A stretch of 64,000 bases of DNA from Gemmatimonadales bacterium (GCA_037189525.1 JBBCJC010000001.1:736001-800000), one strand, 5' to 3'. Shown: positions 9,782 through 61,021, counted from the stretch's first letter. The notes: generated by a model not told the origin, from the sequence alone. A program made the numbers and translations.

Positions 9782-11971
9782 ATGTCCGTTCCTTTCCGAT
9801 ACTCAGGCTTGATCATCGCGGCGGCCCTTGCCGCCTGTGCACCCGAGACGCCGGCGAATCCCGACGTCGCCCGCTGGGAAGCGCGGGCCCGCAACGTCAC
9901 CATCATCCGCGACGACTGGGGCATTCCACACATCTCGGCCAAGACCGACGCCGATGCCGTCTTCGGTCTGATGTATGCCCAGGCCGAAGACGACTTCAAC
10001 CGGGTCGAGACCAACTACCTCAATTCGATGGGCCGGCTGGCGGAAGCGGAGGGAGAAACGGAGATCTACCGCGACCTCCGGATGAAGCTGTTCATCGACC
10101 CCGACAGCATGCGCGCCAAGTACGCGGCGAGCCCCGAGTGGCTCAAGTCGCTGATGGACGCCTTTGCCGATGGGCTCAATTACTACCTGCACAAACACCC
10201 CGAGGTGACACCGCGCGTCATCACCCGGTTCGAGCCGTGGATGGCCCTGACCTTCAGTGAAGGCAGCATCGGAGGTGACATCGAGCGGGTGTCGCTGCGC
10301 GAACTCGAGACGTTCTACGGCGGACGGCCGGCCCGAGTCGCTTCAGCGCACCAGACGATCGCGCCGCCGGACAACGAGCCGCGCGGATCGAACGGCATTG
10401 CCATCGCGCCCAAGAACACGGCGTCGGGCAAATCGATGCTGCTGATCAACCCTCACACCTCGTTCTTTTTCCGGGCGGAGGTCCACGTCACCAGCGAGGA
10501 AGGTCTCAACGCCTATGGCGCGGTGACCTGGGGGCAGTTCTTCGTCTACCAGGGATTCAACGACCGGGCCGGATGGATGCATACCTCGAGCGGCGTCGAC
10601 AACATCGACGAGTATCTCCTGACCGTCACGCCGACCGCCGATGGACACACCTACCGATACGAGAACGAAGACCGACCCGTGGTGAGCCGTACCATCACCA
10701 TTCCGTACAAAACGTCCACGGGCATGGAACAACGGAGCTTCACGGTCCACCGCACGCATCACGGCGCGGTCGTCCGCCAGCAGGATGGCAAGTGGATTGC
10801 CGTGAAACTGATGGAGGAACCGGTCAAAGCCCTCAGCCAGTCGTACAGCCGGACCAAGGCGAAGAGCTTGCAGGAGTTCCGCCAGACGATGGAGTTGCAC
10901 ACCAACTCATCCAACAATACCCTCTATGCGGACGCCGACGGCAACATCGCGTACTTTCACGCCAACTTCGTTCCCAAGCGCGACCCCAAGTTCGACTGGT
11001 CGCGGCCGGTGGACGGCAGCACTCCAGCCACAGAGTGGCAGGGCATCCACGGCATCGACGAATCGCCTAACGTGTTCAACCCGCCGATCGGCTGGGTCTA
11101 CAACACCAACAACTGGCCCTACTCCGCCGCCGGCCCCGACAGCCCGAGGCGCGAGCGCTTCCCGGCCTACATGGAGACGTTCCCGGAAAACCCCCGGGGC
11201 ATCAACGCAGTTCGCCAGCTGACCGGCCGGCAGGGCATCACGCTCGATACCTTGATTGCCATTGCCTACAACCGCTCGATGCCGGCGTTCGACGACCTGA
11301 TCCCCGCCCTGCTCAGCGCAGCCGACCAGACGCCGGCCGCCGATCCGCTCAAGGCGCGCCTGACGGAGCAACTCGACTCGCTGCGCAGCTGGAACCGCCA
11401 GTGGGACGTGGCATCCGTTCCGACGTCGCTCGCCGTGTTCTGGGGTGAAGAGTTGTGGCAACGAGTGCGCGACGTCACCGACCGTGGCAATCTCTCGGTC
11501 TATGAGTACATGGCTCGCCGGACCAGTCCGCAAGTTCGCCTGGAGGCGCTGGCCGCCGCATCCGACAAGCTGACCGCCGACTTCGGCACCTGGAAGACTC
11601 CCTGGGGCGACATCAACCGGTTCCAACGCATCACCGGCGACATCGTCCACCCGTTCGACGATGCCGGGCCGAGCCTGCCGGTCGGGTTCACGTCGGGACG
11701 CTGGGGATCGCTGGCCGTCTTTGGCGCGCGGGCCTATCCCGGAACCAAGAAATGGTACGGGACGAGCGGCAATAGCTTCGTAGCCGCCGTCGAGTTCGGC
11801 GACAGCGTCCGGGCTCGCGCCATCACGGCCGGGGGCCAGAGCGGTCATCCGAGTTCACCGCATTTCAAGGATCAGGCCGAGCGGTACAGTACGGGGGCGT
11901 TGAGAGAGGTGTACTTCTATCCCAATCAGCTGGTCGGACACACTCAGCGAACCTACCACCCGGGCGAGTGA
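9782..11971 (+). CDS. Penicillin acylase family Ntn-hydrolase lipoprotein
   Basis: IIRDDWGIPHI, YAQAED, autocleavage site G|SNG, NPH, GGQSG; lipobox LAAC. Confidence 0.88.
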   Translation: MSVPFRYSGLIIAAALAACAPETPANPDVARWEARARNVTIIRDDWGIPHISAKTDADAVFGLMYAQAEDDFNRVETNYLNSMGRLAEAEGETEIYRDLRMKLFIDPDSMRAKYAASPEWLKSLMDAFADGLNYYLHKHPEVTPRVITRFEPWMALTFSEGSIGGDIERVSLRELETFYGGRPARVASAHQTIAPPDNEPRGSNGIAIAPKNTASGKSMLLINPHTSFFFRAEVHVTSEEGLNAYGAVTWGQFFVYQGFNDRAGWMHTSSGVDNIDEYLLTVTPTADGHTYRYENEDRPVVSRTITIPYKTSTGMEQRSFTVHRTHHGAVVRQQDGKWIAVKLMEEPVKALSQSYSRTKAKSLQEFRQTMELHTNSSNNTLYADADGNIAYFHANFVPKRDPKFDWSRPVDGSTPATEWQGIHGIDESPNVFNPPIGWVYNTNNWPYSAAGPDSPRRERFPAYMETFPENPRGINAVRQLTGRQGITLDTLIAIAYNRSMPAFDDLIPALLSAADQTPAADPLKARLTEQLDSLRSWNRQWDVASVPTSLAVFWGEELWQRVRDVTDRGNLSVYEYMARRTSPQVRLEALAAASDKLTADFGTWKTPWGDINRFQRITGDIVHPFDDAGPSLPVGFTSGRWGSLAVFGARAYPGTKKWYGTSGNSFVAAVEFGDSVRARAITAGGQSGHPSSPHFKDQAERYSTGALREVYFYPNQLVGHTQRTYHPGE

Positions 11972-11986
11972 TCGAGGCGGTCGAGG

Positions 11987-12024
11987 ACGGCGCCCCGAGG
12001 ACTTCACGTCCCCGGGGGCGCCGT
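11987..12024. terminator. Hairpin between convergent genes (probable bidirectional terminator)
   Basis: ACGGCGCCCC/GGGGCGCCGT outer stem with an inner GGAC/GTCC stem. Confidence 0.6.
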
Positions 12025-12030
12025 TTGCGC

Positions 12031-12945
12031 TCAGCCCATCGAGGCCGGTCGAACCAGGAACAGCGGTCGCTCCGCGCCGCGGATGACCTTGTCGGCCACC
12101 GTCCCCAGCAAGGGGGCCGTCATCCCGCTCCCGCCGTGCGTCGTCATGGCCACGAAATCATGCCCGCATGTTTCGATCTGCTGCAGAATGGTGGGCGCGA
12201 CTCCCATACCGACCACCACGCGTGTCGCAACCTGGACCCCCTGGGCCCGCAGTTGATCGGCAAGGCCATCGAGATAGCGCTGCGCCTCACGATACTCGAT
12301 GCTCACGTTCGGGTCCCGGTCCGACCCCGACCAGCCGGCCAGGGTGCCTAACGCGTCCGAAGCAGGCTCCAGGACGTGCATGAGCGTCAGGTGCGACTGG
12401 TGCAAGGCCGCAAATCCCGCCACCGGCTCGAGCACGGCCTCGGCAGCTGCCGTCCGGTCCAGCAGCACGAGACCACGGCGGAACGAACAATCCGCGATGT
12501 CGTCGACCGCCCCGGGAAGCAGGAGAATCGGCCGCCCCGCGTGTCTGATGACGTAATCCGCGACACTGCCAAACCAGAGTCGGCCCATCGCGCCGCGTCC
12601 GTGCGTCGACATGACGACCAGGTCCGGACGCGACAACTCCATCTCGGCAATCAATGCCGCCCCGGGCACCCCCTCGATCAGGCGAAACCCGACCGGTACC
12701 CCGCCCGCGTGCGCGTTGGCCAGCGCAAGTTCCGCCAGATAGGTCTTTTCCCTGACGCGTACGGCCTGACCGTCGGGATCGCCCGAGTAACCGGCTCCGA
12801 CCGGAGCAGGAACCGCGGCCGCCTCGTGCGCCATGACCACCGTTAGGGATGCCCGGGCGGACTTTGCCAGCCGCCGAGCTACGGGAACCGCCACCTCACT
12901 GAAACGAGACCCGTCGACCGACACCATCACCGATTGGATTGCCAT
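12031..12945 (-). CDS. Tandem-domain universal stress protein
   Basis: Two USP domains: VDGS...STHGRG...GSVADYV and TTHG...GTVADKV. Confidence 0.88.
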   Translation of the reverse strand: MAIQSVMVSVDGSRFSEVAVPVARRLAKSARASLTVVMAHEAAAVPAPVGAGYSGDPDGQAVRVREKTYLAELALANAHAGGVPVGFRLIEGVPGAALIAEMELSRPDLVVMSTHGRGAMGRLWFGSVADYVIRHAGRPILLLPGAVDDIADCSFRRGLVLLDRTAAAEAVLEPVAGFAALHQSHLTLMHVLEPASDALGTLAGWSGSDRDPNVSIEYREAQRYLDGLADQLRAQGVQVATRVVVGMGVAPTILQQIETCGHDFVAMTTHGGSGMTAPLLGTVADKVIRGAERPLFLVRPASMG

Positions 12946-44478: not shown

Positions 44479-44988
44479 TCAGATCGGTTTGAAGTGCTCG
44501 AACGGCTGGTGGCAGGCGTGACAGACGTGGATTGCTTTGCACGCGGTCGAACCGAACTCGCTCTCGCGGCGGGTATCCTTCGAGCCACAGAACGGGCAAG
44601 CCACGGTACGCGTCGGTCCGCCCAACGGCACCAGCTCGAGACCACCAGGCCCGACCGGCCCCGGGGGCGCAATGCCGTAGCTGCGCAGCTTTTCCCGCGC
44701 GTCGGCGGTAATCCAATCGGTGGTCCAGGGCGGCGTGAAGACGGTCTTGACGGTCACGGTCTCGAAGCCGTGCCGCTCGAGCGTCTCCGCGATGTCCCGC
44801 TCGATCACCTTGGTAGCCGGGCAGCCCGAATAAGTCGGCGTCACCAGCACCGTCACCCGATTGCCCTCGACCTCGGCGGAACGGACGATGCCGAGCTCGA
44901 CCACATCGATGACGGGTACCTCGGGATCCTTGACCTCGTGCAGGATCTCGAAGACCCGTTCGGCCTCGGCAGACCGGATCGCTACCAC
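44479..44988 (-). CDS. paaD: Phenylacetyl-CoA epoxidase subunit D
   Basis: DPEVP, TPTYSGCPA, WTTDWI, CPFC, FGSTACK, CxxCxxPFEHFK. Confidence 0.92.
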   Translation of the reverse strand: MVAIRSAEAERVFEILHEVKDPEVPVIDVVELGIVRSAEVEGNRVTVLVTPTYSGCPATKVIERDIAETLERHGFETVTVKTVFTPPWTTDWITADAREKLRSYGIAPPGPVGPGGLELVPLGGPTRTVACPFCGSKDTRRESEFGSTACKAIHVCHACHQPFEHFKPI

Positions 44989-45734
44989 GTGGCTCCCGGA
45001 TGCGAACGGGGCACGATCTGCATCTCGGCCAGGAGCCGGCCGAGCGATTCGGTATGCCGCCCCTTCCGGCCGCCGGTCATCCGCATTGGCGTTTCGGGAA
45101 TCGTAAGCCGCGCACGTTCGAGCACGTCGGCCACGACCGCACGCCACTCCGCCTTGAGATCGGGCCGGACCGGGAGACCAAGTTCGGCCTGCGCAGCCTG
45201 ATCGACGGCGTCGGTCGCGAACATCTCGTCGGTCCAGGGCCAGAGCGCGTCGACCGCTTCCTGGGCACGGCGGTGACTTTCCTCGGTCCCGTCGCCCAGG
45301 CGAACCACCCACTCACCCGCGTGACGGAGATGGTAGCGGTTTTCTTTCTGGGCCTTGGCGGCGATTCCGGCGAGTTCCTCGTGGGCCGCCTGCTTGAGCC
45401 ACTCGAACAGGAAGTGGGTCCACGCCGAGAAAAAGAGCTGGCGCACCATGGTAAAGGCGAAATCGCCGCGGGGCAGCTCCACCATCTGCAGGTTGCGGAA
45501 CTGGGTCTCGTCGCGCCAGTAGGCCAGCGCATCGGCGTCCCGGCCCTGACCTTCGACTCGGCCAGCCAGGTCGAGCAGCAGCTGGGCAGCACCGGTCAGG
45601 TCGAGGGCGATATTGGTGATCGCAATATCCTCTTCCAGGATCGGCCCGTGTCCGCACCACTCCGCATTGCGATGGCCCAGGATCAGGCGATCGTCGCCCA
45701 GGCGGAGGAGAAACTCGAAGAGAGGCGCCGACAC
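44982..45734 (-). CDS. paaC: Phenylacetyl-CoA epoxidase subunit C
   Basis: EWCGHGPILEEDIA, KENRYH, RLGDGTEES, GRHTE, HPGATW. Confidence 0.93.
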   Translation of the reverse strand: MSAPLFEFLLRLGDDRLILGHRNAEWCGHGPILEEDIAITNIALDLTGAAQLLLDLAGRVEGQGRDADALAYWRDETQFRNLQMVELPRGDFAFTMVRQLFFSAWTHFLFEWLKQAAHEELAGIAAKAQKENRYHLRHAGEWVVRLGDGTEESHRRAQEAVDALWPWTDEMFATDAVDQAAQAELGLPVRPDLKAEWRAVVADVLERARLTIPETPMRMTGGRKGRHTESLGRLLAEMQIVPRSHPGATW

Positions 45735-45735
45735 G

Positions 45736-46038
45736 TCAGACGCCTCGCACGCCGCGCGGGATCTTATAGAACTGCGGGTGCCGGTAGGCCTTGTCGTTAC
45801 CCGGATCGAAGAACGGCCCCGCATCGCTCGGCGCGGAGGCGATGATCGCCTGGCTGGGCACCACCCAGAGACTGACCGCTTCACCCCGCCGGGTGTAGAC
45901 GTCGCGCGCGTTCTGCAGCGCGATTTCCGCGTCGGGGGCATGCAGGCTGCCGGCGTGCTCGTGCGGCTTCCCGTTCGGCGGCTGGGTAAAGACCTCCCAG
46001 AGCGGCCACTCGTTGCGATCGGTCGTTTCGGTCGCCAT
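45736..46038 (-). CDS. paaB: Phenylacetyl-CoA epoxidase subunit B
   Basis: WPLWEVF, HAGSLHA, ARDVYTRR, YRHP. Confidence 0.93.
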   Translation of the reverse strand: MATETTDRNEWPLWEVFTQPPNGKPHEHAGSLHAPDAEIALQNARDVYTRRGEAVSLWVVPSQAIIASAPSDAGPFFDPGNDKAYRHPQFYKIPRGVRGV

Positions 46039-46052
46039 GCTGTCCTCGTTCG

Positions 46053-47015
46053 TTAGGCGGCCTGGGTCGCGCTCTGCCGCTTGGCCGCATAGGCCAGCGC
46101 CGCATCGCGTACCCACTGCCCGTCTTCGTGCGCCTTCCGGCGCGCCGCGATCCGTTCCTGGTTGCAGGGCCCGTTCCCGGCCAGCACCTGCTTGAACTCC
46201 TCCCAGTCGATCGGACCGGTCAACCAGTCGCCCGAGGCTTCGTCGAAGCGCAACTCGGGATCGGGAATCGTGAGGTCGATGGCCTTGGCCTGGGGAATGG
46301 TCAGGTTGATGAACCGCTGGCGCAGTTCGTCGTTCCCCTTCTGCTTCACCTTCCAACGCAGCAGGTCGCCGCTGTTGGGCGAATCCTTGTCGTGCGGCCC
46401 GAACATCATCAGCGATGGCCACCACCAGCGATTGACCGAATCCTGCACCATCGCCTTCTGGGCCGGGGTGCCCCGGGCCAGGGTGGCGCAGATCTCGTAA
46501 CCCTGCCGCTTGTGGAAGTTCTCTTCTTTACAGATCCGGACCATGGCCCGGGCATAAGGCCCGTAGGACGCGTGGGCCAGCATGGTCTGGTTGACGATGG
46601 CCGCGCCGTCGACGAACCAGCCGATCACACCCATATCGGCCCAGCTCAGGGTCGGATAGTTGAAGATGCTGGAATATTTGGCGGTGCCGTAGAGGTACTG
46701 GTCGATCAGCTCGTCGCGGGAGGTGCCGAGGGTCTCGGTGCCGCAATAGATATAGAGGCCGTGGCCGGCTTCGTCCTGGACCTTGGCCAGGAGCGACATC
46801 TTCCGCCGGAGGCTGGGCGCCCGGGTAATCCAGTTGCCCTCCGGGAGCATCCCGACCACCTCGGAGTGGGCGTGCTGAGACATCATCCGGGTCAGCTGCC
46901 GGCGGTACTTCTCCGGCATCCAGTCCTTCGGTTCGATGGTTTCGCCCGCATCGATCCGGGCATCGAACTCGGCCTGCTTGACCGGATCCTCGGTGATCGT
47001 CTTATCGGTGGCCAT
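46053..47015 (-). CDS. paaA: Phenylacetyl-CoA epoxidase catalytic subunit A
   Basis: [40 protein letters not shown]. Confidence 0.95.
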
Positions 47016-51680: not shown

Positions 51681-52013
51681 TCACGGTTTTGGGACGACGC
51701 GAGGATCGGGGACCACGGGAAGGGATACGAACGACGCATGGACGCCGCCCCGATGGACCGCCTGCTGCGCTACGACCGGTACCGTTCGCTCGAGCACGAC
51801 CGGCACAGGATGAGCGACGGCAGGCCGATACACATCCGCGAACAGCGTCATCCCGTCACGCATTGGGATCGGGACGGCAAACTGGCGAACGATCGAGTCG
51901 GCTGAACCCGCAACCGGCCAACGATTCGGCATCACGGTATCGAGCGCGACGGCACGAGAGCCGGGCAACACAGCAACGAGCATCGAGAGGACAGCTACGA
52001 GGGGTCTGGTCAT
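51681..52013 (-). pseudogene. CocE/NonD hydrolase remnant (N- and C-termini fused)
   Basis: IPMRDG..LFADVYRP...PVVLERT joined directly to VAQQAVH...ASFVSLPVVP; catalytic core absent. Confidence 0.7.
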
Positions 52014-52074: not shown

Positions 52075-52635
52075 TCACTGATCCCAGGAATCGTGAAATA
52101 GCTGCGCCGACGCACTGCCCCCTGCCCGCTCCAGGTCCGGTGCCTCGGCCCCTCGTGCCGGATCGACCTGGCAGTAACGTCGATCGAAAAAGAGCAGCGG
52201 ATCGCGGGGCGGAAGTCCCAGATTCCGATCAATCACCTCGACAGTCACGACCAGATGGTCACCGCCCTCGAACGTCGCATCGATCTTGCCACCGAGAACG
52301 AATGCAGCCCCTTCCAGGCGATGCACCTCACCCCACTCGACGAATCGATGCGGAGGTGGCGACGCTGCTTTCCACGAACCGGCAAAGTAGGTAGACAACG
52401 CCTGCTGGTCCGCTCGCAACACGTTGACGGAACAAGGCCGCCCCGGCGTGAGCAACGAGGCCATCCGTGCCTGTTTCCCGACACACAACAGCACCAGGGG
52501 TGGCGACAACGACAGCGACGTGAACGACCCGATCGTCATACCCTGTACCCCGCTGCCATCAGAGATCGCGAGCACCACGACACCCGTCGGGTATTGGCTC
52601 AATGCCTCTCGGAACGCAGCGGGTTCGATCGTCAC
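52075..52635 (-). CDS. Flavin reductase (HpaC-like component)
   Basis: FREALSQYPTGVVV, SFTSLSLSPPLVL, GGDH; GTGA overlap with the NIPSNAP stop. Confidence 0.88.
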   Translation of the reverse strand: MTIEPAAFREALSQYPTGVVVLAISDGSGVQGMTIGSFTSLSLSPPLVLLCVGKQARMASLLTPGRPCSVNVLRADQQALSTYFAGSWKAASPPPHRFVEWGEVHRLEGAAFVLGGKIDATFEGGDHLVVTVEVIDRNLGLPPRDPLLFFDRRYCQVDPARGAEAPDLERAGGSASAQLFHDSWDQ

Positions 52636-52973
52636 AGGGGCTGTCCTCCTTCGAGCAAGGCTTCCATCCGAAAGAACGGCGCGGGATTCATCAATCGTGT
52701 TTCCTGAGTTTCCAGCAATGGATGAATTTTGGCGAGATAGCCGGGCCACCGCGGATCCGCCCGCATCCGTTCGCGGCATTCAGTCCGATGCTCGTAGCTC
52801 CGATAGGCCCAGAGATGAACGACCTGGTTGAGCGGGCCGATCTCCGTCACATAGTATCCGACGCAATGCGGCAGATACTCCCGCTGGATCAGCATACCCT
52901 CCGCCTGATACACCGCGAGATACTCGGCCAACTTGCCCATCTGAAACGTGTATGTGCGCTGCTCGACGATCAT
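52632..52973 (-). CDS. NIPSNAP family protein
   Basis: EQRTY, TEIGPLNQVVHLWAY, DPRW. Confidence 0.88.
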   Translation of the reverse strand: MIVEQRTYTFQMGKLAEYLAVYQAEGMLIQREYLPHCVGYYVTEIGPLNQVVHLWAYRSYEHRTECRERMRADPRWPGYLAKIHPLLETQETRLMNPAPFFRMEALLEGGQPL

Positions 52974-52976
52974 GCC

Positions 52977-53528
52977 TCACCCTTCCAGAAATGGAGTCTC
53001 GCCTTCGCCCCGAAGGCGGATATCGAATCGAAACATCTCCGCCGCGCCATCCGGTACGAGCATCAGCCGGCTCCGAACGGCCGGATCGATTGCCGCAAGC
53101 TGCGGATCAGCGGCGACGGCCGCCTCATCCGGAAAGAATGCTTCCGTTTCGAGCGGCCGCATCAACCCGGACCCCAGCAAGCGGAAGCACAGGTGCGGCG
53201 CCCGGATCGAACCGCCGGATGTCGCGACGGGTCTTCCCGGCCTCAAGGTCCGAAAATGATAGCATCCGTCCTCGTCCGTCCAGACTCGGCCCCAGCCCCT
53301 GAAACGGTCGGCGGCACCAACGCGCTGGCCGGCCGGATCGACCTGCCACAGTTCGACGATGACGTTGACCACCGGATGCCCTTCGCCGTCGATGATCCGG
53401 CCACGGACTTCGACCACATCACCCTCGACTCGCGTTCCATCCCGCCCGACGGTCAGATCTCCGTCGGTCGGGCCAATGAAGGCCGGCGGAAAGAACGGAC
53501 CCGTCGTATGCCACGCCATGCCCGTCAC
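52977..53528 (-). CDS. pcaG: Protocatechuate 3,4-dioxygenase-like alpha subunit (divergent)
   Basis: GPFF, ELWQ, GWGR, APH, RFDIRLRGEGETPF. Confidence 0.8.
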   Translation of the reverse strand: MTGMAWHTTGPFFPPAFIGPTDGDLTVGRDGTRVEGDVVEVRGRIIDGEGHPVVNVIVELWQVDPAGQRVGAADRFRGWGRVWTDEDGCYHFRTLRPGRPVATSGGSIRAPHLCFRLLGSGLMRPLETEAFFPDEAAVAADPQLAAIDPAVRSRLMLVPDGAAEMFRFDIRLRGEGETPFLEG

Positions 53529-54241
53529 GGGTGATCGTCCTCCAGCGGAGTCTCACGACTGCCGCCGAGCACGAAGTCATGGGAATAACCGAGCGCGCCG
53601 TCCGCTGTCGAAAGGTCCGGATCGAAGGCGGAGACCAATCGAGATCGCGCGCGCTCGTCGCGGATGCTGTTGAGCAGGAGATCGTACGCGTTGAGCGGCT
53701 CGCCCGGGAAATACATCTGAGTCACCAGACGTTTGCCGAACCCGTCGCCGAAGATCGAGAAATGAATGTGCGGGGGCCGCCACCACCCGGCCAGCTGCCC
53801 ATCACCGTCATAGGGCACTGCGTACCCGCCAGGCTTGATGGTACGCAGCTGATACCGCCCTTCGGCGTCGGTCACGATCCGGCCGACCCCTTCGAAATTG
53901 GGATCCACCGGCACCGGCGACGGATCGGCCGGGTGAATGTATTTGCCCGCCGAGTTGGCCTGCCAACACTCGAGCAACGCGTGACGGATCGGCCGGCCGG
54001 CTTCGTCCACGATACGCCCGGTCACCACGATCAGCTGACCAAGCGCGCGCGGCCTGCCAGGCGAGATAACCGACAGATCGCAGGTGGGCGGAAACGTCAC
54101 CAGCTCCGCTCCAAACGAGGCCGGCACCTCTACTGGCGCCACGCGCGGCCACGAGGGCGCCAACGGAGATCGTAACAGACTCTTCCGATAGCCGGGCACA
54201 TGGCGCGGCGGCTGGGTGGCGTCGCTCTGGTCGACCGTCAT
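53525..54241 (-). CDS. pcaH: Protocatechuate 3,4-dioxygenase-like beta subunit (divergent)
   Basis: WQANSAGKY, TIKPGGY, WRPPHIHFS, RLVTQMYF; the 2-Tyr/2-His Fe ligands are present. Confidence 0.85.
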   Translation of the reverse strand: MTVDQSDATQPPRHVPGYRKSLLRSPLAPSWPRVAPVEVPASFGAELVTFPPTCDLSVISPGRPRALGQLIVVTGRIVDEAGRPIRHALLECWQANSAGKYIHPADPSPVPVDPNFEGVGRIVTDAEGRYQLRTIKPGGYAVPYDGDGQLAGWWRPPHIHFSIFGDGFGKRLVTQMYFPGEPLNAYDLLLNSIRDERARSRLVSAFDPDLSTADGALGYSHDFVLGGSRETPLEDDHP

Positions 54242-55407
54242 ACCACTTCCTTCTCCTGAAGCGCCAGACCGGCGACTCGGGTTCGATCGAGCTCGACGCC
54301 GAGCCCTGGGCCCGAGGGTACGGCCATGGCACCATCCCGAATAGCCAAGGCTCCGGTCACGACATCCTCACCAAGCACGTGGTGTCCGCAATCATTGGCG
54401 CGCTGGATCCCGGGAAACGCCGCCGTGAGGTGGAGATTCGCGGCTGTTCCAATACCGGTTTCGAAGAGACTGTGAATCGCGACCTCGAACCCAAGTGGCT
54501 CCGCAGCATGGACCAGCGCGCGGAACCGGCTCACTCCTCCCCAGAGATACAGGTCGGCCAGAATCACGTCGACCGGCCTGCTGTGTACCGCGGCTGCCAG
54601 ATGATCTGGCTGAATGATGCACATATTGGTGGCCACCGGCGTTCGCACCTGGCTGCGCAGGCGGGCGAGTCCGGCCTGATCGTCGGTCGGATCCTCGAAG
54701 AACTCGAGACCCAAATCATCCATGGACCGACAGAGCGCAATCGCCTCTGCAGGGGGATAGCCGGCATTGGGATCGAACCTGAGCGCGGCCTCGGGCAGAC
54801 GCTCGCGAAGCGCCGACATGACGGCCCGATCGAAGGCGGGACTGACGGCCGCACTCTTGTACTTGAAGCAACGAAACCCATACTGATCGGACTGGCGAAC
54901 GGCATACTCGACAACGGCATCGATCCGACCGAGATCGCCGAACAGCCGAGTCACCTCGGCCCTGGACAACGGATGGTCGAGCATCAGCGCAGGAAGCGGA
55001 CAAACCAGATCGACCGGCCCCCGTCGACCGGCACCGAGCATCCCACCCAGCGATACGCCGGCCATCCGGGCGCTCAGATCCCACAATGCGAGATCGAGTC
55101 CGCCTGAAACCGACCACCCGGTCCGGCCGAATCGATTGTCGAACACCGAACGAGCGTAGCGGCGTTCGACGACTCGGCGCTCGATCGGGTCTACGCCGAT
55201 CAGTCCTACCGCCAGCTGAGCGGCCAGATGAAAAGCTTCGGCTGTGCCGTGGGCCTCTCCATAGCCGCAGAACTCGCCATCGCTGGTTTCGACTTCGATG
55301 ACCGTCCGCAGGGTATCCTGCATCACGTACATCGAGCTCAGATAAACCATCCGGAGCGGAATCCGCACCTGCCACAGGCGGACACGACCGATCCGTCGGG
55401 AACTCAT
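54238..55407 (-). CDS. Enolase-superfamily enzyme, glucarate dehydratase-like subgroup
   Basis: KYK, RFDPN, EDP, ATNM, HS and PGLGVELD, matching the GlucD-type ligand pattern. Confidence 0.82.
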   Translation of the reverse strand: MSSRRIGRVRLWQVRIPLRMVYLSSMYVMQDTLRTVIEVETSDGEFCGYGEAHGTAEAFHLAAQLAVGLIGVDPIERRVVERRYARSVFDNRFGRTGWSVSGGLDLALWDLSARMAGVSLGGMLGAGRRGPVDLVCPLPALMLDHPLSRAEVTRLFGDLGRIDAVVEYAVRQSDQYGFRCFKYKSAAVSPAFDRAVMSALRERLPEAALRFDPNAGYPPAEAIALCRSMDDLGLEFFEDPTDDQAGLARLRSQVRTPVATNMCIIQPDHLAAAVHSRPVDVILADLYLWGGVSRFRALVHAAEPLGFEVAIHSLFETGIGTAANLHLTAAFPGIQRANDCGHHVLGEDVVTGALAIRDGAMAVPSGPGLGVELDRTRVAGLALQEKEVV

Positions 55408-56069
55408 GCCGGCATCCGCCCAACCGAGAATACCGGCTTCTGCCGGTCGGGCGACACGAACTGCGCATCCGACGGCCGGCCGAGCGTGGCCATCGGGAGC
55501 GCCTCCCGCAACGCCACCGCAACCGGCTCGGCCCGGCTGCCGTCCGGGACCTCGATGGCTAGTCCAACCTGCAGGACCCGGCAGAGCGCATCGAGCCGAA
55601 GGAGCGCAGCAACCGACCAGACCCGCGGGTCGAGGCGAAGCCATGCGACATGCGCGCCTTGCAGCCACGCCGCGATCTCATCGAAGCTCGCGTCCTCCAC
55701 GGTATGGCCATCAGCGCCCAGAGTGTCAGGATCGATTATCTGACCGGTACCTCGGACCGAGCCGCCCAACCACTGGCTGAGCGAAACCCCGGCAGCGGCA
55801 GCGGTCAGGGCAGCAAGCCCGTTCTCGACGCCCGAGAAGGCAACCCAATCGAGCCCGCCGGAGACTGGACGGTCAGCCCAACGCCGGCTTTCGGCAACGA
55901 TGGGGCGACCCAGCTGCAGCGTTAGGCGATCGGCGAGGCGGCTAGCCAGCCCGGCATCGTTCCTCGCAACGGATCGACTCTGGTTGCCACGGTCGTCCAC
56001 GAGAAAGACGACGAGTTCGTCACCGACCTCATCCGCCGAGGCATAGACCAGAACGCGATCATCGAGCAC
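55404..56069 (-). CDS. Degenerate enolase-superfamily-like protein
   Basis: AFSGVENGLAAL.A.AAGVSLSQWLGG capping-domain motif; overlaps both neighbours; no catalytic motifs. Confidence 0.55.
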   Translation of the reverse strand: MLDDRVLVYASADEVGDELVVFLVDDRGNQSRSVARNDAGLASRLADRLTLQLGRPIVAESRRWADRPVSGGLDWVAFSGVENGLAALTAAAAGVSLSQWLGGSVRGTGQIIDPDTLGADGHTVEDASFDEIAAWLQGAHVAWLRLDPRVWSVAALLRLDALCRVLQVGLAIEVPDGSRAEPVAVALREALPMATLGRPSDAQFVSPDRQKPVFSVGRMPA

Positions 56070-56808
56070 GAGGCACCTTGGCCAGATCGAGCACCGATTC
56101 GCCGGCATCGATCCGGGCTATCCGCTTCGCTTCCGCCTGTTCGAGGGACGAAACGAGCTCCGCCACCTGCGCTGCGAGCGCCCGCGGAACGAAGACCACC
56201 CCCGCATCGTCGGCGACGACGAGGTCACCGGGGTGGACCGTGATACCCGAGATCACGACAGCCTGATTGACGGCCATCGTCTCGAGCCGGTACTTCCCCG
56301 TCATCGGACTCGAGCCCCGAGACCAGACCGGATAGCCCAGCTGGCGCAACGAAGCAACATCTCGTACCGCGCCGTCCACAACGGCGCCAAGTTCTCCCTG
56401 GCGGAACCCGATGGCGGCCGAGATGCGTCCCATGCTGGAGATTCCCGGGGCGCCGGCCACGACGAGCACGTCACCCCGGTCGGCTTGATTGTGCGCTTCG
56501 ATATCGGCGAGCCGCACATCACCTTCCTGCACGCGGCGCCGCATGACCTCGGCAGACGGCAGCTCCGCATCACGCACGACATGCCGGACCGTGAGCGCGC
56601 GCCCGACGACGCGACGGCCCGGCATGGTCGGATTCAGTTCGGACGCAGGAACCGCCCCAACGACCCCCAACCCATCGAGCACATCGGACACCGCGCTGGA
56701 GGCGTCATCGATACTGCGGAAGAACGCGAGCACCTCGTCCGGAACCTGCGGCATCGGGCGTGCTCCGATACGATCAGCCGCCAGACGTCCGGTCAGCGAG
56801 CGCGTCAT
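56059..56808 (-). CDS. RraA/HMG-CHA aldolase family protein
   Basis: VSDVLD, GRALTV, VVDGAVRD, VHPGDLVVADDAGVVFVP. Confidence 0.85.
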   Translation of the reverse strand: MTRSLTGRLAADRIGARPMPQVPDEVLAFFRSIDDASSAVSDVLDGLGVVGAVPASELNPTMPGRRVVGRALTVRHVVRDAELPSAEVMRRRVQEGDVRLADIEAHNQADRGDVLVVAGAPGISSMGRISAAIGFRQGELGAVVDGAVRDVASLRQLGYPVWSRGSSPMTGKYRLETMAVNQAVVISGITVHPGDLVVADDAGVVFVPRALAAQVAELVSSLEQAEAKRIARIDAGESVLDLAKVPRAR

Positions 56809-56809
56809 C

Positions 56810-57712
56810 TCAACGCCCCACCCCTGGCGCCAGCGGACCGAATCGCTGCTCGGGAAGTCCCACGACTCCGGGCTTCACGGCAAACAGGCCACCGGCCAAC
56901 GGTTGCTCCGCACGTTCCTCCGGCGTCAGCCGCTGCCAGGCCGTCGTGATATAGAGCGTATCGAGCGCCGGACCACCGAAGGCACAGCAGGTTGCGTTGC
57001 GCACCGGCAGCGAGACGATGCGATCGACCGTCCCATCCGGGCGATAGCGCACCACGCGCCCTCCGTTGTACTCGGCGTTCCAGAGGCATCCTTCTGCGTC
57101 GACCGTCGAGCCGTCGGGGCGGCCCGGCCGGCCGGTCAGGTCCACCAGCACCCGATCCGGACCCAGCCTGCCTGCTTCGAGATCGAAATCGAAGACCTGA
57201 ATCTGATAGCGGTAGGTATCGGCGAAATACATCCGGCGCCCGTCCGGACTCCACGCCGTGCTGTTCGGCACCACGATCCCATTGAAGAATCGTTCTACCC
57301 GCCCGTCGGGATCGAGACGATAGAGTGAGCCGGTGGGCGACCGATCGCCCGTATTCATCGTGCCACACCAGAAGCGGCCTGCCCGGTCGACTCGGCCGTC
57401 GTTGAACCGGTGACCGGCCGGGACATCGCCCGGCGACGCCAACCATTTCAGCGTTTCGGTCTCCAGATCCACCAGCCAGAAGGCTGTCTCCAGCGCAGCA
57501 AGCAGCCTATCCTCGCCGGCGACGAACCCGATCGATCCGACCATTTCCGGCATCGGAACCGTCCCGCTCGCTCCGGAAGCCGGCTCGAACCACCAGATCA
57601 GCGGGGCACGGGTATCAACCCAGTAGAGCCGCTGGCGGCGGTCGCACCAGATCGGGCTTTCCCCGAGATGGTTTTCGGCCGGCAACACGCACGTCGCAAT
57701 GAGATCGGTCAT
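56810..57712 (-). CDS. SMP-30/gluconolactonase family lactonase
   Basis: LGESPIW, RFNDG, PN..WSPD, PDG..VDAEG, FGG...LYITT. Confidence 0.9.
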   Translation of the reverse strand: MTDLIATCVLPAENHLGESPIWCDRRQRLYWVDTRAPLIWWFEPASGASGTVPMPEMVGSIGFVAGEDRLLAALETAFWLVDLETETLKWLASPGDVPAGHRFNDGRVDRAGRFWCGTMNTGDRSPTGSLYRLDPDGRVERFFNGIVVPNSTAWSPDGRRMYFADTYRYQIQVFDFDLEAGRLGPDRVLVDLTGRPGRPDGSTVDAEGCLWNAEYNGGRVVRYRPDGTVDRIVSLPVRNATCCAFGGPALDTLYITTAWQRLTPEERAEQPLAGGLFAVKPGVVGLPEQRFGPLAPGVGR

Positions 57713-58686
57713 CCCTGATACACCACGTTGAGGAGCGGTTCGCCTCGCGCGAGCCGATCGAGATTCGACGCAATAGTCGCCCAGCGGCGATTCACCATCC
57801 CGATCGTCCAGGCGGAGGAATGTGGCGTCATATAGACATTGGACAGCTCGTGAAATGGATGGCGCGACGGGCGAACATCCGCAACGTCGGGGGTCGGATA
57901 CTGATACCATGCGTCGAGCACCGCGCCCCCGATCCGCCTGGACGAGAGGGCATCGAACAGAGCATCCTCATCGACGATCTGACCTCGGGCCACGTTGATC
58001 ACCACGGCGGTCGGCCGCAGCAGGGCAAGTTCCCGCGCTCCGATCATCCCGATCGTTTCGGGGGTCAGTGCCGCCGTCACGACCAGAAAGTCGACCTGCC
58101 CCAGGAATTCGTCCAAACGTCCGACACCGCCGAACCAGTCGACTCCAGGTGGCAACGGCCGCTCCGTGCGGCTGCACACCATCACAGTCGTGTCCATCGC
58201 CTTCGCGCGCGGCACGATCGCCTCGGCGATGTGTCCAAACCCCAGGATTCCGACGGTCTTCCCGGCGAGTTCGTCCTGATAGGGCCCGGCGGTCCGGCCG
58301 CCGAGTCGCCAGGATCCTTCGATCCGGAAAGAGCGCTCGGCCTCCATGAAGCGCGAACACCATTGCAGCATTGCCAGCACGACGTACTCAGCAATCGGCA
58401 CTTCGTGGCCGAAGGCGTTGCACACCTTGCACCCGGGCGGCAGATACTCCAGATCGACCGCATCGTAGCCGGCCCCGCCCACCTGGAGCAGCTCGAGATC
58501 CGGTGCCGGCGGCATCGAGCGATCATAGCGCATCGTAATCGCGGCCCGCACCCCGACCAGCTCGGCTTCGACCGCGCGATACGGCGTATCGTCCGGCAGC
58601 GGCACGAACTCGATTGGCGCCGTTACCAGACCCTCGAGTCGCTCCTGCTGCGCCGTGGCCAACGAACCGAGCAGGGCAACCTTCAC
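57709..58686 (-). CDS. D-isomer-specific 2-hydroxyacid dehydrogenase
   Basis: GILGFGHI, INVARG, LDAW, TPHS. Confidence 0.88.
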   Translation of the reverse strand: MKVALLGSLATAQQERLEGLVTAPIEFVPLPDDTPYRAVEAELVGVRAAITMRYDRSMPPAPDLELLQVGGAGYDAVDLEYLPPGCKVCNAFGHEVPIAEYVVLAMLQWCSRFMEAERSFRIEGSWRLGGRTAGPYQDELAGKTVGILGFGHIAEAIVPRAKAMDTTVMVCSRTERPLPPGVDWFGGVGRLDEFLGQVDFLVVTAALTPETIGMIGARELALLRPTAVVINVARGQIVDEDALFDALSSRRIGGAVLDAWYQYPTPDVADVRPSRHPFHELSNVYMTPHSSAWTIGMVNRRWATIASNLDRLARGEPLLNVVYQG

Positions 58687-60167
58687 TCCAGATCGCCGTC
58701 CGTCGCGGCGCGGGCCAGGAACTGGCGAACCTTATCCATATACATGGTCCGATCGTGGCTGTTGACCAGCGCCCCCGCCATCCGAACCGGGTCGCCGAAG
58801 AAGTACCGTTCGTAGAGCACCTGCCGCGTCCCGAAGGCCGAGATGGCCGTATCCCACGCCAGACGGAACAAGGGGATGCGGTCCAGCGCATCGAGGCGTG
58901 CTGCCTGAAAGTAACGCTTTACATCCTCGATCAGCGGCCCGTTGACGTCGGCTTCCGTCGGCATGGCAACCAGCCCCGCGGCGCCCAACTGCTGAATGAT
59001 TTCGATCATGCGCGGGTAGAGCCGCGGATAGAGATTCCGAGCCGCATCGAGCGGATCCCACGCAGGACGCATCACGCCGTACTCGTCGAGCGCAGCCCCC
59101 GCCTCCGCCGCAACCCGAAAGGCCCGCATCGTTTCCAGATTGACCCAAATCTCGGCCAGCTTTTCCTGGACGTGCTGAAACTGCTCGATGGCAATGGCAT
59201 CGATCATCATCGACGCGAGCCCGAGGAGATACTCGGTCTTGGCGATGTTCTTGATCAGCACCTGATGAGCCATGTTGGCCAGCGCGCCCGTTTTCTGGTA
59301 GGCGGCATTGCAACGCGCCACATCGCGGTAGAGAAAGACCCGTTCCCACGGCACGAACACGTCGTCGAAGATCACGACGGCATCCATCTCCTCGAAGCGC
59401 GAGGCGAGGGGATGATCGAAATGCGACCGGCCATGATCGACGGTTTCGCGGCAGAGGAACCGCAACCCCGGGGTATCCGTGGGGATCGAGAGGGCGTAGG
59501 CGTAGCGCTGGTCTTCTTCGGTGTTTCTGAGAAAGGTCGACGGAAACACCATGATCTCGTCGGCCACCGGCAGCGTGGCGAGCATCCGGCAGCCGCGCAC
59601 GACGATGCCGGCGTCGTTCTCGTCCTTCACCTTGGCGGCCAGGAACGGGTCGGCCTGCATCGCGGCGTGTACCGAGCGATTGGCCTGCGGGCTGCTGAGG
59701 GTGTGCGTCAGGCAGAGATCGTGGTCACGGATGTAGGCGTGATAGGCCCGGATATTCTCGCCGAAGCGCGGCTCGGCCTCACCCAGAAACGCGGCGCCTG
59801 CTGCGTATCCGGAAATCGACCGATTGATGTAGTCGGGCAGCCGTCCCATCATGCCCAGCGTCGCCCCGGTCCAGTGCGCCATCGACCGCCCGACCGCCCT
59901 CAGGTCCTCCGCGGTGGTCGGGTTCTGAAAGGAGCGCCCGACCCGAAACGGTCCGCCGGGCGAATCGAACAGCGTCAGCGCAGGCTCCTGCCACTGGAGA
60001 TCGTAGAGACGGGCCAGGGTTTTGATCCCTCCGGCAAAGCCGGGGGAAGTTGTAGGATCATTTATCCGCTCCCCGCGATGCCAGAGAGCAGGAGTCCTAT
60101 CCTTAAGTCGTTCAATGACTTGAGACCCTCGTCGCGCTCCGGAAGGAGACTGGGAGCTCATTTTCAT
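58683..60167 (-). CDS. hpaB: 4-hydroxyphenylacetate 3-monooxygenase-type oxygenase component
   Basis: GRLPDY, THTL, ATL, FPST, SRFEEMDA, VFVPWERVF, RQVLYERYFFGDP; exact start uncertain (60161-60185). Confidence 0.88.
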   Translation of the reverse strand: MKMSSQSPSGARRGSQVIERLKDRTPALWHRGERINDPTTSPGFAGGIKTLARLYDLQWQEPALTLFDSPGGPFRVGRSFQNPTTAEDLRAVGRSMAHWTGATLGMMGRLPDYINRSISGYAAGAAFLGEAEPRFGENIRAYHAYIRDHDLCLTHTLSSPQANRSVHAAMQADPFLAAKVKDENDAGIVVRGCRMLATLPVADEIMVFPSTFLRNTEEDQRYAYALSIPTDTPGLRFLCRETVDHGRSHFDHPLASRFEEMDAVVIFDDVFVPWERVFLYRDVARCNAAYQKTGALANMAHQVLIKNIAKTEYLLGLASMMIDAIAIEQFQHVQEKLAEIWVNLETMRAFRVAAEAGAALDEYGVMRPAWDPLDAARNLYPRLYPRMIEIIQQLGAAGLVAMPTEADVNGPLIEDVKRYFQAARLDALDRIPLFRLAWDTAISAFGTRQVLYERYFFGDPVRMAGALVNSHDRTMYMDKVRQFLARAATDGDLE

Positions 60168-60170
60168 GCC

Positions 60171-60215
60171 TTGATTGTTGAACAATTAAGATATATTCAT
60201 GAATCCTTCTCGCAA
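60171..60215 (-). promoter_or_regulatory. hpaB-operon promoter and GntR-type operator
   Basis: Palindrome ATTGTT-G-AACAAT (60174-60186); minus strand TTGCGA (60215-60210), 16 nt, TATCTT (60193-60188). Confidence 0.6.
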
Positions 60216-60313
60216 GCCATTGCGTCGACGTTGTTTACTTGGAGAGGATTGTTCATCAGATGAACCCGACCCTGCCCCGGCTCAGTCGAGAGCGGCCGAC
60301 CGCCCGAGGATCG

Positions 60314-61021
60314 ATGACCTCTCCCGCCACCCCGCGTACCCACGACCCACTGTCGGATGCGAACCGCGCGGACGTCGCCGCCCATACGCTTGCATCCCGG
60401 ATTCTCCGTGGCGAGCTTGCTCCCGGCACGCGCCTCCCGGAAATCGAGCTCGCGACCGCACTGGACGTCTCCCGCAACACGCTGCGCGAAGCGATCAAGA
60501 TTCTGGCGGCGCGCGGGTTGGTGCAGCTGCAGCGGCACCGGAGCGCTACAGTGGCCACGCTGTCGGCGGATGGCGTCCGGGATCTCTATCGGATGCGCCG
60601 GCTGCTCGAACTGTCCGCCGTCGAGGCCAGCGCCGGCCAACCGGCCGAGAGCTTTCATGAGATCGGCGCAGCGATCGGCCAACTGACCCGGGCGGCAACG
60701 CTCGACGACCCGGTTGCGATCATCGAGGCCGACCTCGCCTTTCATCGGGCCGTGGTCCGCCTCCATGGCAGCGAACGCATCGAATCGGCGTTTACGGCGG
60801 GCCTCGACGAGTTGCGGCTGGGATTGGCCCTGCTCGATGCGCGGACCGAGCCGACGCTGGGCGGGCTGGTTGACGACCATCGGGCCATGTACGGACTGCT
60901 GCTGCGTGGCGAGCAGGATGGGTGTCGGCAGTTACTCCGCGCGCATCTTGGCGCATCGGAGGAGCAGGTACTGACGGCGCTCGAACGAGCCGGCAACGGA
61001 GGTTCGAGCAACGGACCCTGA
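60314..61021 (+). CDS. GntR family regulator (FCD domain)
   Basis: PGTRLPE..LA..LDVSRNTLREAI; DLAFH and DDH FCD residues. Confidence 0.9.
   Translation: MTSPATPRTHDPLSDANRADVAAHTLASRILRGELAPGTRLPEIELATALDVSRNTLREAIKILAARGLVQLQRHRSATVATLSADGVRDLYRMRRLLELSAVEASAGQPAESFHEIGAAIGQLTRAATLDDPVAIIEADLAFHRAVVRLHGSERIESAFTAGLDELRLGLALLDARTEPTLGGLVDDHRAMYGLLLRGEQDGCRQLLRAHLGASEEQVLTALERAGNGGSSNGP

Follow-up and report, generated by a model that had tools for sequence, protein, structure and literature searches.

Protocatechuate 3,4-dioxygenase (PcaHG) uses Trp449, Arg133 and Tyr324 among its substrate-binding residues. Older work reported that canonical PcaHG slowly turns over homoprotocatechuate, and also described a caffeate 3,4-dioxygenase activity that has remained an orphan. 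Mutagenesis by Contzen et al. in 2001 is said to lie behind the link between a Trp449→Val exchange and the type II enzymes. The sca cluster is equated with pcaH2G2 in PMC5632844, and homoprotocatechuate is described as being opened in bacteria by the extradiol dioxygenase HpaD in PMC3053370.

The window analyzed here, a stretch of 64,000 nucleotides from a Gemmatimonadales bacterium (genome G000, 98% complete), carries a pair of PcaHG-like genes within a minus-strand operon whose stops and starts mostly overlap, with a GntR regulator on the opposite strand. The genes are listed in operon order, followed by the regulator:

58683..60185, minus strand: predicted HpaB, 4-hydroxyphenylacetate 3-hydroxylase oxygenase (TIGR02309, 626 bits vs. 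cut-off 480)
57709..58686, minus strand: D-2-hydroxyacid dehydrogenase (PF02826)
56810..57712, minus strand: SMP-30/gluconolactonase-family (SGL) lactonase (PF08450, E 4e-83; start set by the overlap with the upstream stop)
56059..56808, minus strand: RraA-like protein of the HMG/CHA aldolase family (PF03737; matches to LigK models weak, below cut-off)
55404..56069, minus strand: degenerate enolase-superfamily protein, a predicted partner subunit (221 aa, no Pfam match)
54238..55407, minus strand: glucarate-dehydratase-type enolase-superfamily enzyme (PF13378 and PF02746; KxK, D-P-N, E, N and an Asp/His pair)
53525..54241, minus strand: PcaH-like beta subunit (238 aa; iron ligands kept, Val449, 5-residue insertion, WWRPPH motif)
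52977..53528, minus strand: PcaG-like alpha subunit (183 aa; Arg133→Ser at residue 120)
52632..52973, minus strand: NIPSNAP-domain protein (PF07978; in 5 of 9 closest-subclade loci among the matches listed)
52075..52635, minus strand: HpaC-type flavin reductase (PF01613; best NCBIfam match HpaC_Thermus, below cut-off)
60239..61021, plus strand: divergent GntR/FCD regulator (PF00392 and PF07729; same position in loci L001, L119 and L120)

A scan of promoters and terminators gave results at chance level. After the operon lies a truncated CocE/NonD-type hydrolase gene (51681-52013 in the window; weak TIGR00976 match), and L001 has a 544-aa ORF at the matching position.

The beta and alpha ORFs overlap by 4 bases. 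In profile searches the beta subunit scored 219.5 bits with TIGR02422, below the cut-off of 296.4, and the alpha subunit scored 127 bits with TIGR02423, just above the cut-off of 126.25. An AlphaFold model of the beta subunit alone (pLDDT 79) has PcaH chains as its best Foldseek matches, which confirms the PcaH fold, the pocket itself depending on alpha as well; a search of the ESM Atlas returned generic PcaH clusters only. A metal-free alpha paralogue adjoins beta, the mark of the PcaHG structural family, and we assign both predicted subunits to this family of intradiol dioxygenases.

Residue equivalences were taken from HMMER alignments to the PDB chains of the P. putida (2pcd) and Acinetobacter (1eo2) enzymes, with numbering anchored by the PDB mutant entries Y408, Y447H, R457S and R133H. 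An earlier account of this DNA, made from its nucleotides without database searches (the sequence-only reading), had proposed that beta retains the iron ligands Tyr408, Tyr447, His460 and His462 together with Arg457, that Trp449 is replaced by Val and followed by an insertion, and that alpha Arg133 is replaced by Ser. The alignments agree on each point: in beta, Y101=Y408, Y140=Y447, R155=R457, H158=H460, H160=H462 and V142=W449, while in alpha, the alignment to 1eo2_A and 2bux_A pairs S120 with the His that replaces Arg133 in the Acinetobacter mutant R133H (2bux). Val and Ser, not Trp and Arg, therefore occupy the canonical positions. The equivalents of beta Tyr324 and Gln477 are also intact. 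The spacing from Tyr447 to Trp456 is 13 residues in the window beta subunit vs. 8 in 75/75 canonical loci; a loop of 13-14 residues is restricted to the closest subclade (9/9 loci among the matches listed), where it is part of the group definition.

Beta genes from the fetched loci were grouped by loop motif and other positions were then taken from the alignments; duplicate fetches, L080 and genes without any matching motif were left out of the residue counts. In these groups, counts at position 449 are circular because the groups are defined by the beta loop. Counts at alpha position 133 are not. Of 59 canonical partners, 56 have Arg here and 3 a gap; both type II partners (2/2) have Lys, and Arg occurs in none of the 71 partners from the WWRPPH clade (Ser 63, Ile 6, Ala 2). 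Among the protein-database matches listed, 107 of 120 homologues contain the WWRPPH motif, 105 of them together with Val449. This clade-wide conservation rules out pseudogene decay or chance as the cause of the residue changes. Two further changes that had been singled out are real but less telling. GPY has become GPF, but Phe is found in 42/59 canonical alpha subunits; in the change from YKTS to YRKS (we take the first three residues to be Tyr324-Thr326 of PcaH), Arg325 is present in 29/75 canonical betas and only Thr326→Lys is unusual (0/75). Being common in canonical PcaHG, neither GPF nor Arg325 is informative. The suggestion that the substrate is not protocatechuate is upheld as probable, with a catechol bearing a longer substituent in its place.

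Trees were built from dereplicated rows with the trait columns removed (95 rows for beta, with three hydroxyquinol-dioxygenase-like rows excluded, and 55 for alpha); they hold only two type II rows, one characterized by context and one by motif. In the beta tree, canonical and type II sequences make up one branch (99/98) with type II nested inside, the subclade of the window sequence (21 rows) is recovered at 98/96 and the wider WWRPPH group at only 93/81. In the alpha tree, the WWRPPH partners form a single branch (100/95) and type II falls among canonical rows (97/95 and 99/87). AU tests on alpha reject a union of type II with the closest subclade (p = 4e-5) and with the whole clade (p = 0.032); for beta, union with the whole clade is not rejected (p = 0.053). 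A sequence check of the sca cluster on pSA3 of N. resinovorum SA1 gave Val449 in ScaE and Lys133 in its alpha partner. The association of Trp→Val with type II thus holds for ScaE, and the alignment and phylogeny that had been proposed as a check confirm that the window enzyme and type II have Val449 in common, but they place the window pair in a clade of its own. A type II or sulfocatechol-oxidizing identity is not supported, as alpha Lys133, the 8-residue loop and a neighboring sulfomuconolactone hydrolase gene are all absent and type II is nested in type I. Since type II lies apart from the WWRPPH clade, Val449 is best read as convergent or ancestral.

Among the matches listed, the closest named relatives come from Gemmatimonadota and the next from beta- and alphaproteobacterial genomes. 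Judged by these comparisons, the window pair belongs to a separate, widespread clade that is neither type I nor type II, and the WWRPPH/Ser133 enzymes are a real, conserved and probably hitherto unrecognized third type of dioxygenase with the PcaHG fold. Searches of the literature outside subscription journals turned up neither an account of this clade nor an intradiol route for homoprotocatechuate. One clade member resides in a cultured strain, Falsiroseomonas bella CQN31 (L006, 8437-11244), where a two-subunit tartrate/fumarate-type Fe-S hydro-lyase stands in for the enolase-family hydratase.

The gene neighborhoods also differ from those of canonical pcaHG. On loci of at least 8 kb, pcaB adjoins 18/30 canonical vs. 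1/54 clade genes and pcaD/C adjoins 20/30 vs. 1/54, counts that are not independent because about 40 of the clade loci repeat a single betaproteobacterial cluster almost unchanged. Gene context is available for 9 closest-subclade loci among the matches listed, the metagenome matches listed being mostly canonical PcaH; sulfomuconolactone hydrolase, pcaB2 and maleylacetate reductase are beside none of these 9, and G000 has no match to sulfomuconolactone hydrolase or maleylacetate reductase. The proteobacterial sister loci encode HMG-CoA-lyase-like proteins (40/65), CaiB CoA-transferases (34/65), MetE-like proteins (31/65), a second dioxygenase (18/65; the one tested is of the hydroxyquinol type) and the same hydratase as the window (16/65), with lactonase or RraA in 0/65. 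The HMG-CoA-lyase-like and CaiB neighbors fit cleavage of a carbon-branched product, and cleavage to acetyl-CoA and maleylacetate is plausible for this lineage. Maleylacetate reductase is almost always missing at the same loci (1/65). The MetE-like protein (PRK06520 family), which recurs beside the clade enzyme and a hydroxyquinol-type dioxygenase in L011, L027, L051 and related betaproteobacterial loci, may process a ring-cleavage product. HpaB adjoins only 4/74 clade loci, so other clade members may take other substrates.

Two further groups of intradiol-type genes were seen among the fetched loci. A second PcaH-like group (Asn or Val at 449; WMRPPH, WFRPPH or WKRPRH; no adjacent pcaG) is found in L009, L013, L014, L017, L047, L049, L052, L054, L059-L063, L065-L068, L072, L077 and L079, often accompanied by pcaB-like and Rieske genes. 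In 17 of the 19 loci with this group alone, a 4-sulfomuconolactone-hydrolase-like gene (273-369 bits) is nearby, and in L063 the group occurs alongside a type II pair; it is a candidate single-subunit sulfocatechol dioxygenase. A single-gene group from Gemmatimonadota (W[IV]RPPH or similar; L098-L103, L126-L128) branches outside PcaH.

The operon, of which the sequence-only reading made no use, points to the HpaBC product as the substrate of the dioxygenase. Five residues contact the substrate in T. thermophilus HpaB (PMC10537072); two of them, Ser197 and Thr198, hold the carboxylate of 4-hydroxyphenylacetate, and His/Tyr is present at these positions in hydroxylases of phenol, nitrophenol and alkylphenol (PMC6710988). 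The window HpaB keeps the equivalents of Arg100, Tyr104, His142, Ser197 and Thr198 (alignment to T. thermophilus 2yyg), and the Ser/Thr pair is kept in the HpaB proteins of the window, L001, L119 and L120. By its profile score and these residues, the window HpaB is a predicted 4-hydroxyphenylacetate 3-hydroxylase.

HpaB (HpaB-1, TIGR02309) is above cut-off in 6 of 401 genomes of the phylum, five of them from one genus. Three, G000, G126 and G301, combine it with the dioxygenase cassette, and a class-wide search found no further cassette genome among the 401. In these three there is no HpaD (best 24 bits), LigB-family enzyme, pobA, pcaB or pcaC above cut-off, and no maleylacetate reductase of the Fe-ADH type was found. 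In the remaining three, G147, G189 and G344, the same site is occupied by hpaB-dehydrogenase-hpaC, followed by paa genes; the seven genes from lactonase through NIPSNAP are absent from their hpaB locus, and none has a clade-level beta match (there is no beta match in G147, and in G189 and G344 a pcaH with Trp449 lies at another place in the genome). They encode HpaD (381-390 bits vs. cut-off 321) in an hpaE-D-G-G-F-H-like run. Scanning 13 genes of these runs against profiles gave passes for HpaD (3/3), HpaH (3/3), HpaE (2/2) and the HpaG C-terminal subunit (1/1), with one HpaG N-terminal subunit below cut-off and no match for three putative HpaF at the 1e-40 limit. Their hpaD, hpaF-like and hpaH genes have no tblastn match in G000, and their HpaB proteins are 81-82% identical to that of the window.

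The cassette and the hpa meta pathway are thus mutually exclusive in 6/6 genomes. A three-vs.-three pattern among close kin reflects perhaps two events and is a natural swap rather than a statistic, but no other evidence speaks as strongly for the HpaBC product as the compound on which the enzyme acts. Sitting where relatives keep the usual ring-opening enzyme for 4-hydroxyphenylacetate breakdown, it probably belongs to an alternative route. L001 and L120 (G126), which may be closely related to each other, repeat the operon order of the window, and so does L002 up to the end of its contig. L119 (G301, from another family) has the same order without the degenerate gene, plus a CoA-acylating semialdehyde dehydrogenase of the malonate-semialdehyde type, which the homoprotocatechuate route leaves unexplained. 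Genes resembling paaABCD (epoxidase) lie about 5 kb downstream of the window operon (about 44479-47015), and paa genes directly follow hpaC in L002 and in the cassette-free congeners, which makes the region an arylacetate catabolic island.

Because the D-2-hydroxyacid dehydrogenase gene also lies between hpaB and hpaC in the three cassette-free congeners (L224, L225, L226), it belongs to the hydroxylase module rather than the ring-cleavage cassette, and we rejected it as a required lower-pathway step. PDB searches with the dehydrogenase and the RraA protein indicated no substrate. The glucarate-dehydratase-type enzyme has 4dye/2oqh and putative glucarate dehydratases as its best PDB matches, with 4gyp chains also among the matches, and its motifs, presumably those of the glucarate-dehydratase type, are invariant across 11 aligned homologues. 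They suggest hydration of a C6 dicarboxylate, making the enzyme a candidate muconate hydratase or lactonizing enzyme. The degenerate protein (hhalign 76% with the family of its neighbor) is by this match a truncated remnant of that enolase-type family, and it is predicted to bind the neighboring enzyme: the modeled complex scores 0.85 vs. 0.01 for the best control, runs agree in at least 94% of contacts and the partner has a pLDDT of at least 84. The mark used was reached by 116/157 solved pairs vs. 2/215 mismatched pairs, although a pass here may reflect likeness to solved enolase oligomers. Degenerate enolase-family proteins of varied length adjoin a glucarate-dehydratase-like gene in several lineages (e.g., L011:7323-7916, L007:11307-12311).

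From the observed residues, clade, operon and distribution we infer both the substrate and an intradiol chemistry. Homoprotocatechuate or a hydroxylated form of it is the most likely ring-cleavage substrate; that the enzyme performs intradiol (ortho) cleavage of homoprotocatechuate itself is a proposal for which we see an even chance. In this scheme HpaBC would hydroxylate 4-hydroxyphenylacetate to homoprotocatechuate (3,4-dihydroxyphenylacetate), and the PcaHG-like Fe(III) heterodimer, replacing the extradiol HpaD, would cleave between the two hydroxyls, working as PcaHG does, to yield 3-carboxymethyl-cis,cis-muconate; loss of Trp449 and Arg133 would free space for a side chain that exceeds that of protocatechuate by one carbon, with Lys326 and alpha Arg137 as candidates to take the place of Arg133. 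The carbon branch is not removable by PcaB/PcaC chemistry, so other lower enzymes would be needed. Hydration or lactonization of the muconate, followed by C-C cleavage, might fall to the RraA aldolase, the lactonase and the glucarate-dehydratase-like enzyme together with its inactive partner. What these steps yield, and in which order they run, is the least certain part of the scheme.

Some observations count against homoprotocatechuate cleavage, among them the missing maleylacetate reductase; with none found in G000, G126 and G301, we rejected this enzyme as the exit in gemmatimonads. In addition, RraA/LigK aldolases require a 4-hydroxy-2-oxo acid, a compound that simple hydration of 3-carboxymethylmuconate would not yield. 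This favors a gallate-like route, which is why we count that route, though unlikely, among the rivals: HpaBC would hydroxylate homoprotocatechuate again to 3,4,5-trihydroxyphenylacetate, the dioxygenase would form a carboxymethyl-2-pyrone carboxylate, and lactonase, hydratase and RraA protein, as analogues of LigI, LigJ and LigK, would release pyruvate and 3-oxoglutarate. This uses the three enzymes in textbook order, there is no HpaD to intercept homoprotocatechuate, and the exclusion of HpaD fits equally well. Against it, the documented double hydroxylation is that of an A. baumannii enzyme (PMC10537072). The closely similar HpaB of the congeners feeds HpaD, and the proteobacterial sister loci share the hydratase but neither lactonase nor RraA. 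The A. baumannii enzyme presumably belongs to a family other than that of the window HpaB. Rather improbable, in our estimate, is a substrate whose side chain is an alpha-hydroxy or alpha-oxo acid (3,4-dihydroxyphenyl-lactate, -pyruvate or -mandelate); the side chain would supply the 2-oxo group for RraA and, in the mandelate version, give 2-oxoglutarate and malonate semialdehyde. It draws on the D-2-hydroxyacid dehydrogenase after hpaB in 6/6 genomes, on the aminotransferase and SNF transporter genes that flank the G301 operon, and on the semialdehyde dehydrogenase of that operon, which shares 43% identity with the best-scoring MMSDH-family enzyme of G000 and 59% with the second one. The same D-2-hydroxyacid dehydrogenase in HpaD/HpaH genomes means that such a ring-cleavage substrate is not demanded, the chemistry is our own construction, and G000 and G126 have HPPD above cut-off, a separate tyrosine route.

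The remaining explanations fare worse. Extradiol cleavage by a remodeled enzyme despite its intradiol fold would suit the hydratase and aldolase, which are typical of meta pathways, and a 2-hydroxymuconic semialdehyde dehydrogenase gene right after pcaG in L005 (899 bits vs. cut-off 693), with a close homologue in L004 (both at about 11300-12800), is odd for an intradiol enzyme; with all intradiol catalytic residues intact and such a dehydrogenase in only 2/74 loci, the window operon not among them, we consider this very unlikely. A pyrogallol-type substrate without side chain, giving pyruvate and malonate semialdehyde, accounts in one line for lactonase, hydratase, aldolase and the G301 semialdehyde dehydrogenase, but is highly improbable given the carboxylate-binding Ser/Thr pair of HpaB and a pocket from which two bulky residues are gone, hardly the mark of a smaller substrate. 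We give equally little credit to a divergent but ordinary protocatechuate 3,4-dioxygenase: the alpha subunit just passes its profile, homologues are named PcaH in databases and the clade-edge locus L008 adjoins pcaB and pcaDC, yet Arg133 and Trp449 are gone, beta is below its cut-off and the genome yielded no pobA, pcaB or pcaC. Least probable of all is a type II, 4-sulfocatechol-oxidizing enzyme, for which Val449 in both the window beta and SA1 ScaE and the unrejected beta union speak; the nested position of type II in both trees, the alpha AU tests, a beta identity of 40% to type II vs. 44% to the Trp449 PcaH of the same strain, and the lack of its accessory genes at the 9 closest-subclade loci among the matches listed all stand against it.

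Returning to intradiol cleavage of homoprotocatechuate, we tentatively extend it, at slightly less than even confidence, to a general view in which the WWRPPH/Ser133 enzymes would be a third PcaHG type serving an ortho pathway for homoprotocatechuate and related carbon-branched catechols. This pathway would be interchangeable with the hpa meta pathway, and the branched muconate would be resolved by hydration and retro-aldol (gemmatimonads) or retro-Claisen (proteobacteria) cleavage, using a heteromeric glucarate-dehydratase-like enzyme. If true, this would add a pathway to central aromatic metabolism, with a gene set that is complete and open to testing, and provide a natural enzyme for making branched muconates. 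It would also correct many pcaHG annotations, since homologues are routinely named protocatechuate dioxygenases, a practice that would inflate predicted protocatechuate/lignin catabolism in uncultured Gemmatimonadota and Proteobacteria.

In comparison with known systems, the window pair resembles type I PcaHG (2pcd, 1eo2) in its adjacent beta/alpha genes, fold, 2-Tyr/2-His iron site, Arg457, Tyr324 and Gln477, but differs in Val449, Ser133, the longer loop, the WWRPPH motif and its separate clade, and it lacks the pcaB/C/D or pobA context. With type II PcaH2G2/ScaEF (N. resinovorum SA1, H. intermedia) it shares the replacement of Trp449 by Val and the loss of Arg133; type II, however, has Lys133 and an 8-residue loop (2 loci) where the window pair has Ser and 13 residues, derives from within type I, and is encoded beside pcaB2, sulfomuconolactone hydrolase and maleylacetate reductase, unlike the window genes. 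LigI and LigJ are amidohydrolases. The PDC/gallate route through LigI-LigJ-LigK follows the same logic of lactone hydrolase, hydratase and RraA-family aldolase, but the window lactonase is of the SGL family, its hydratase is of the enolase family and its RraA protein misses the LigK cut-off by far. E. coli glucarate dehydratase and its related protein (PDB 4gyp) likewise pair an enolase-superfamily enzyme with a related subunit encoded beside it, the window partner differing as a truncated 221-aa remnant without a Pfam match. With the homoprotocatechuate meta pathway (HpaBC with HpaD, E, F, G, H and I) the window operon shares the HpaBC entry and, by inference, the same catechol, but in place of HpaD and the downstream genes it carries an intradiol-fold enzyme and unrelated lower enzymes.
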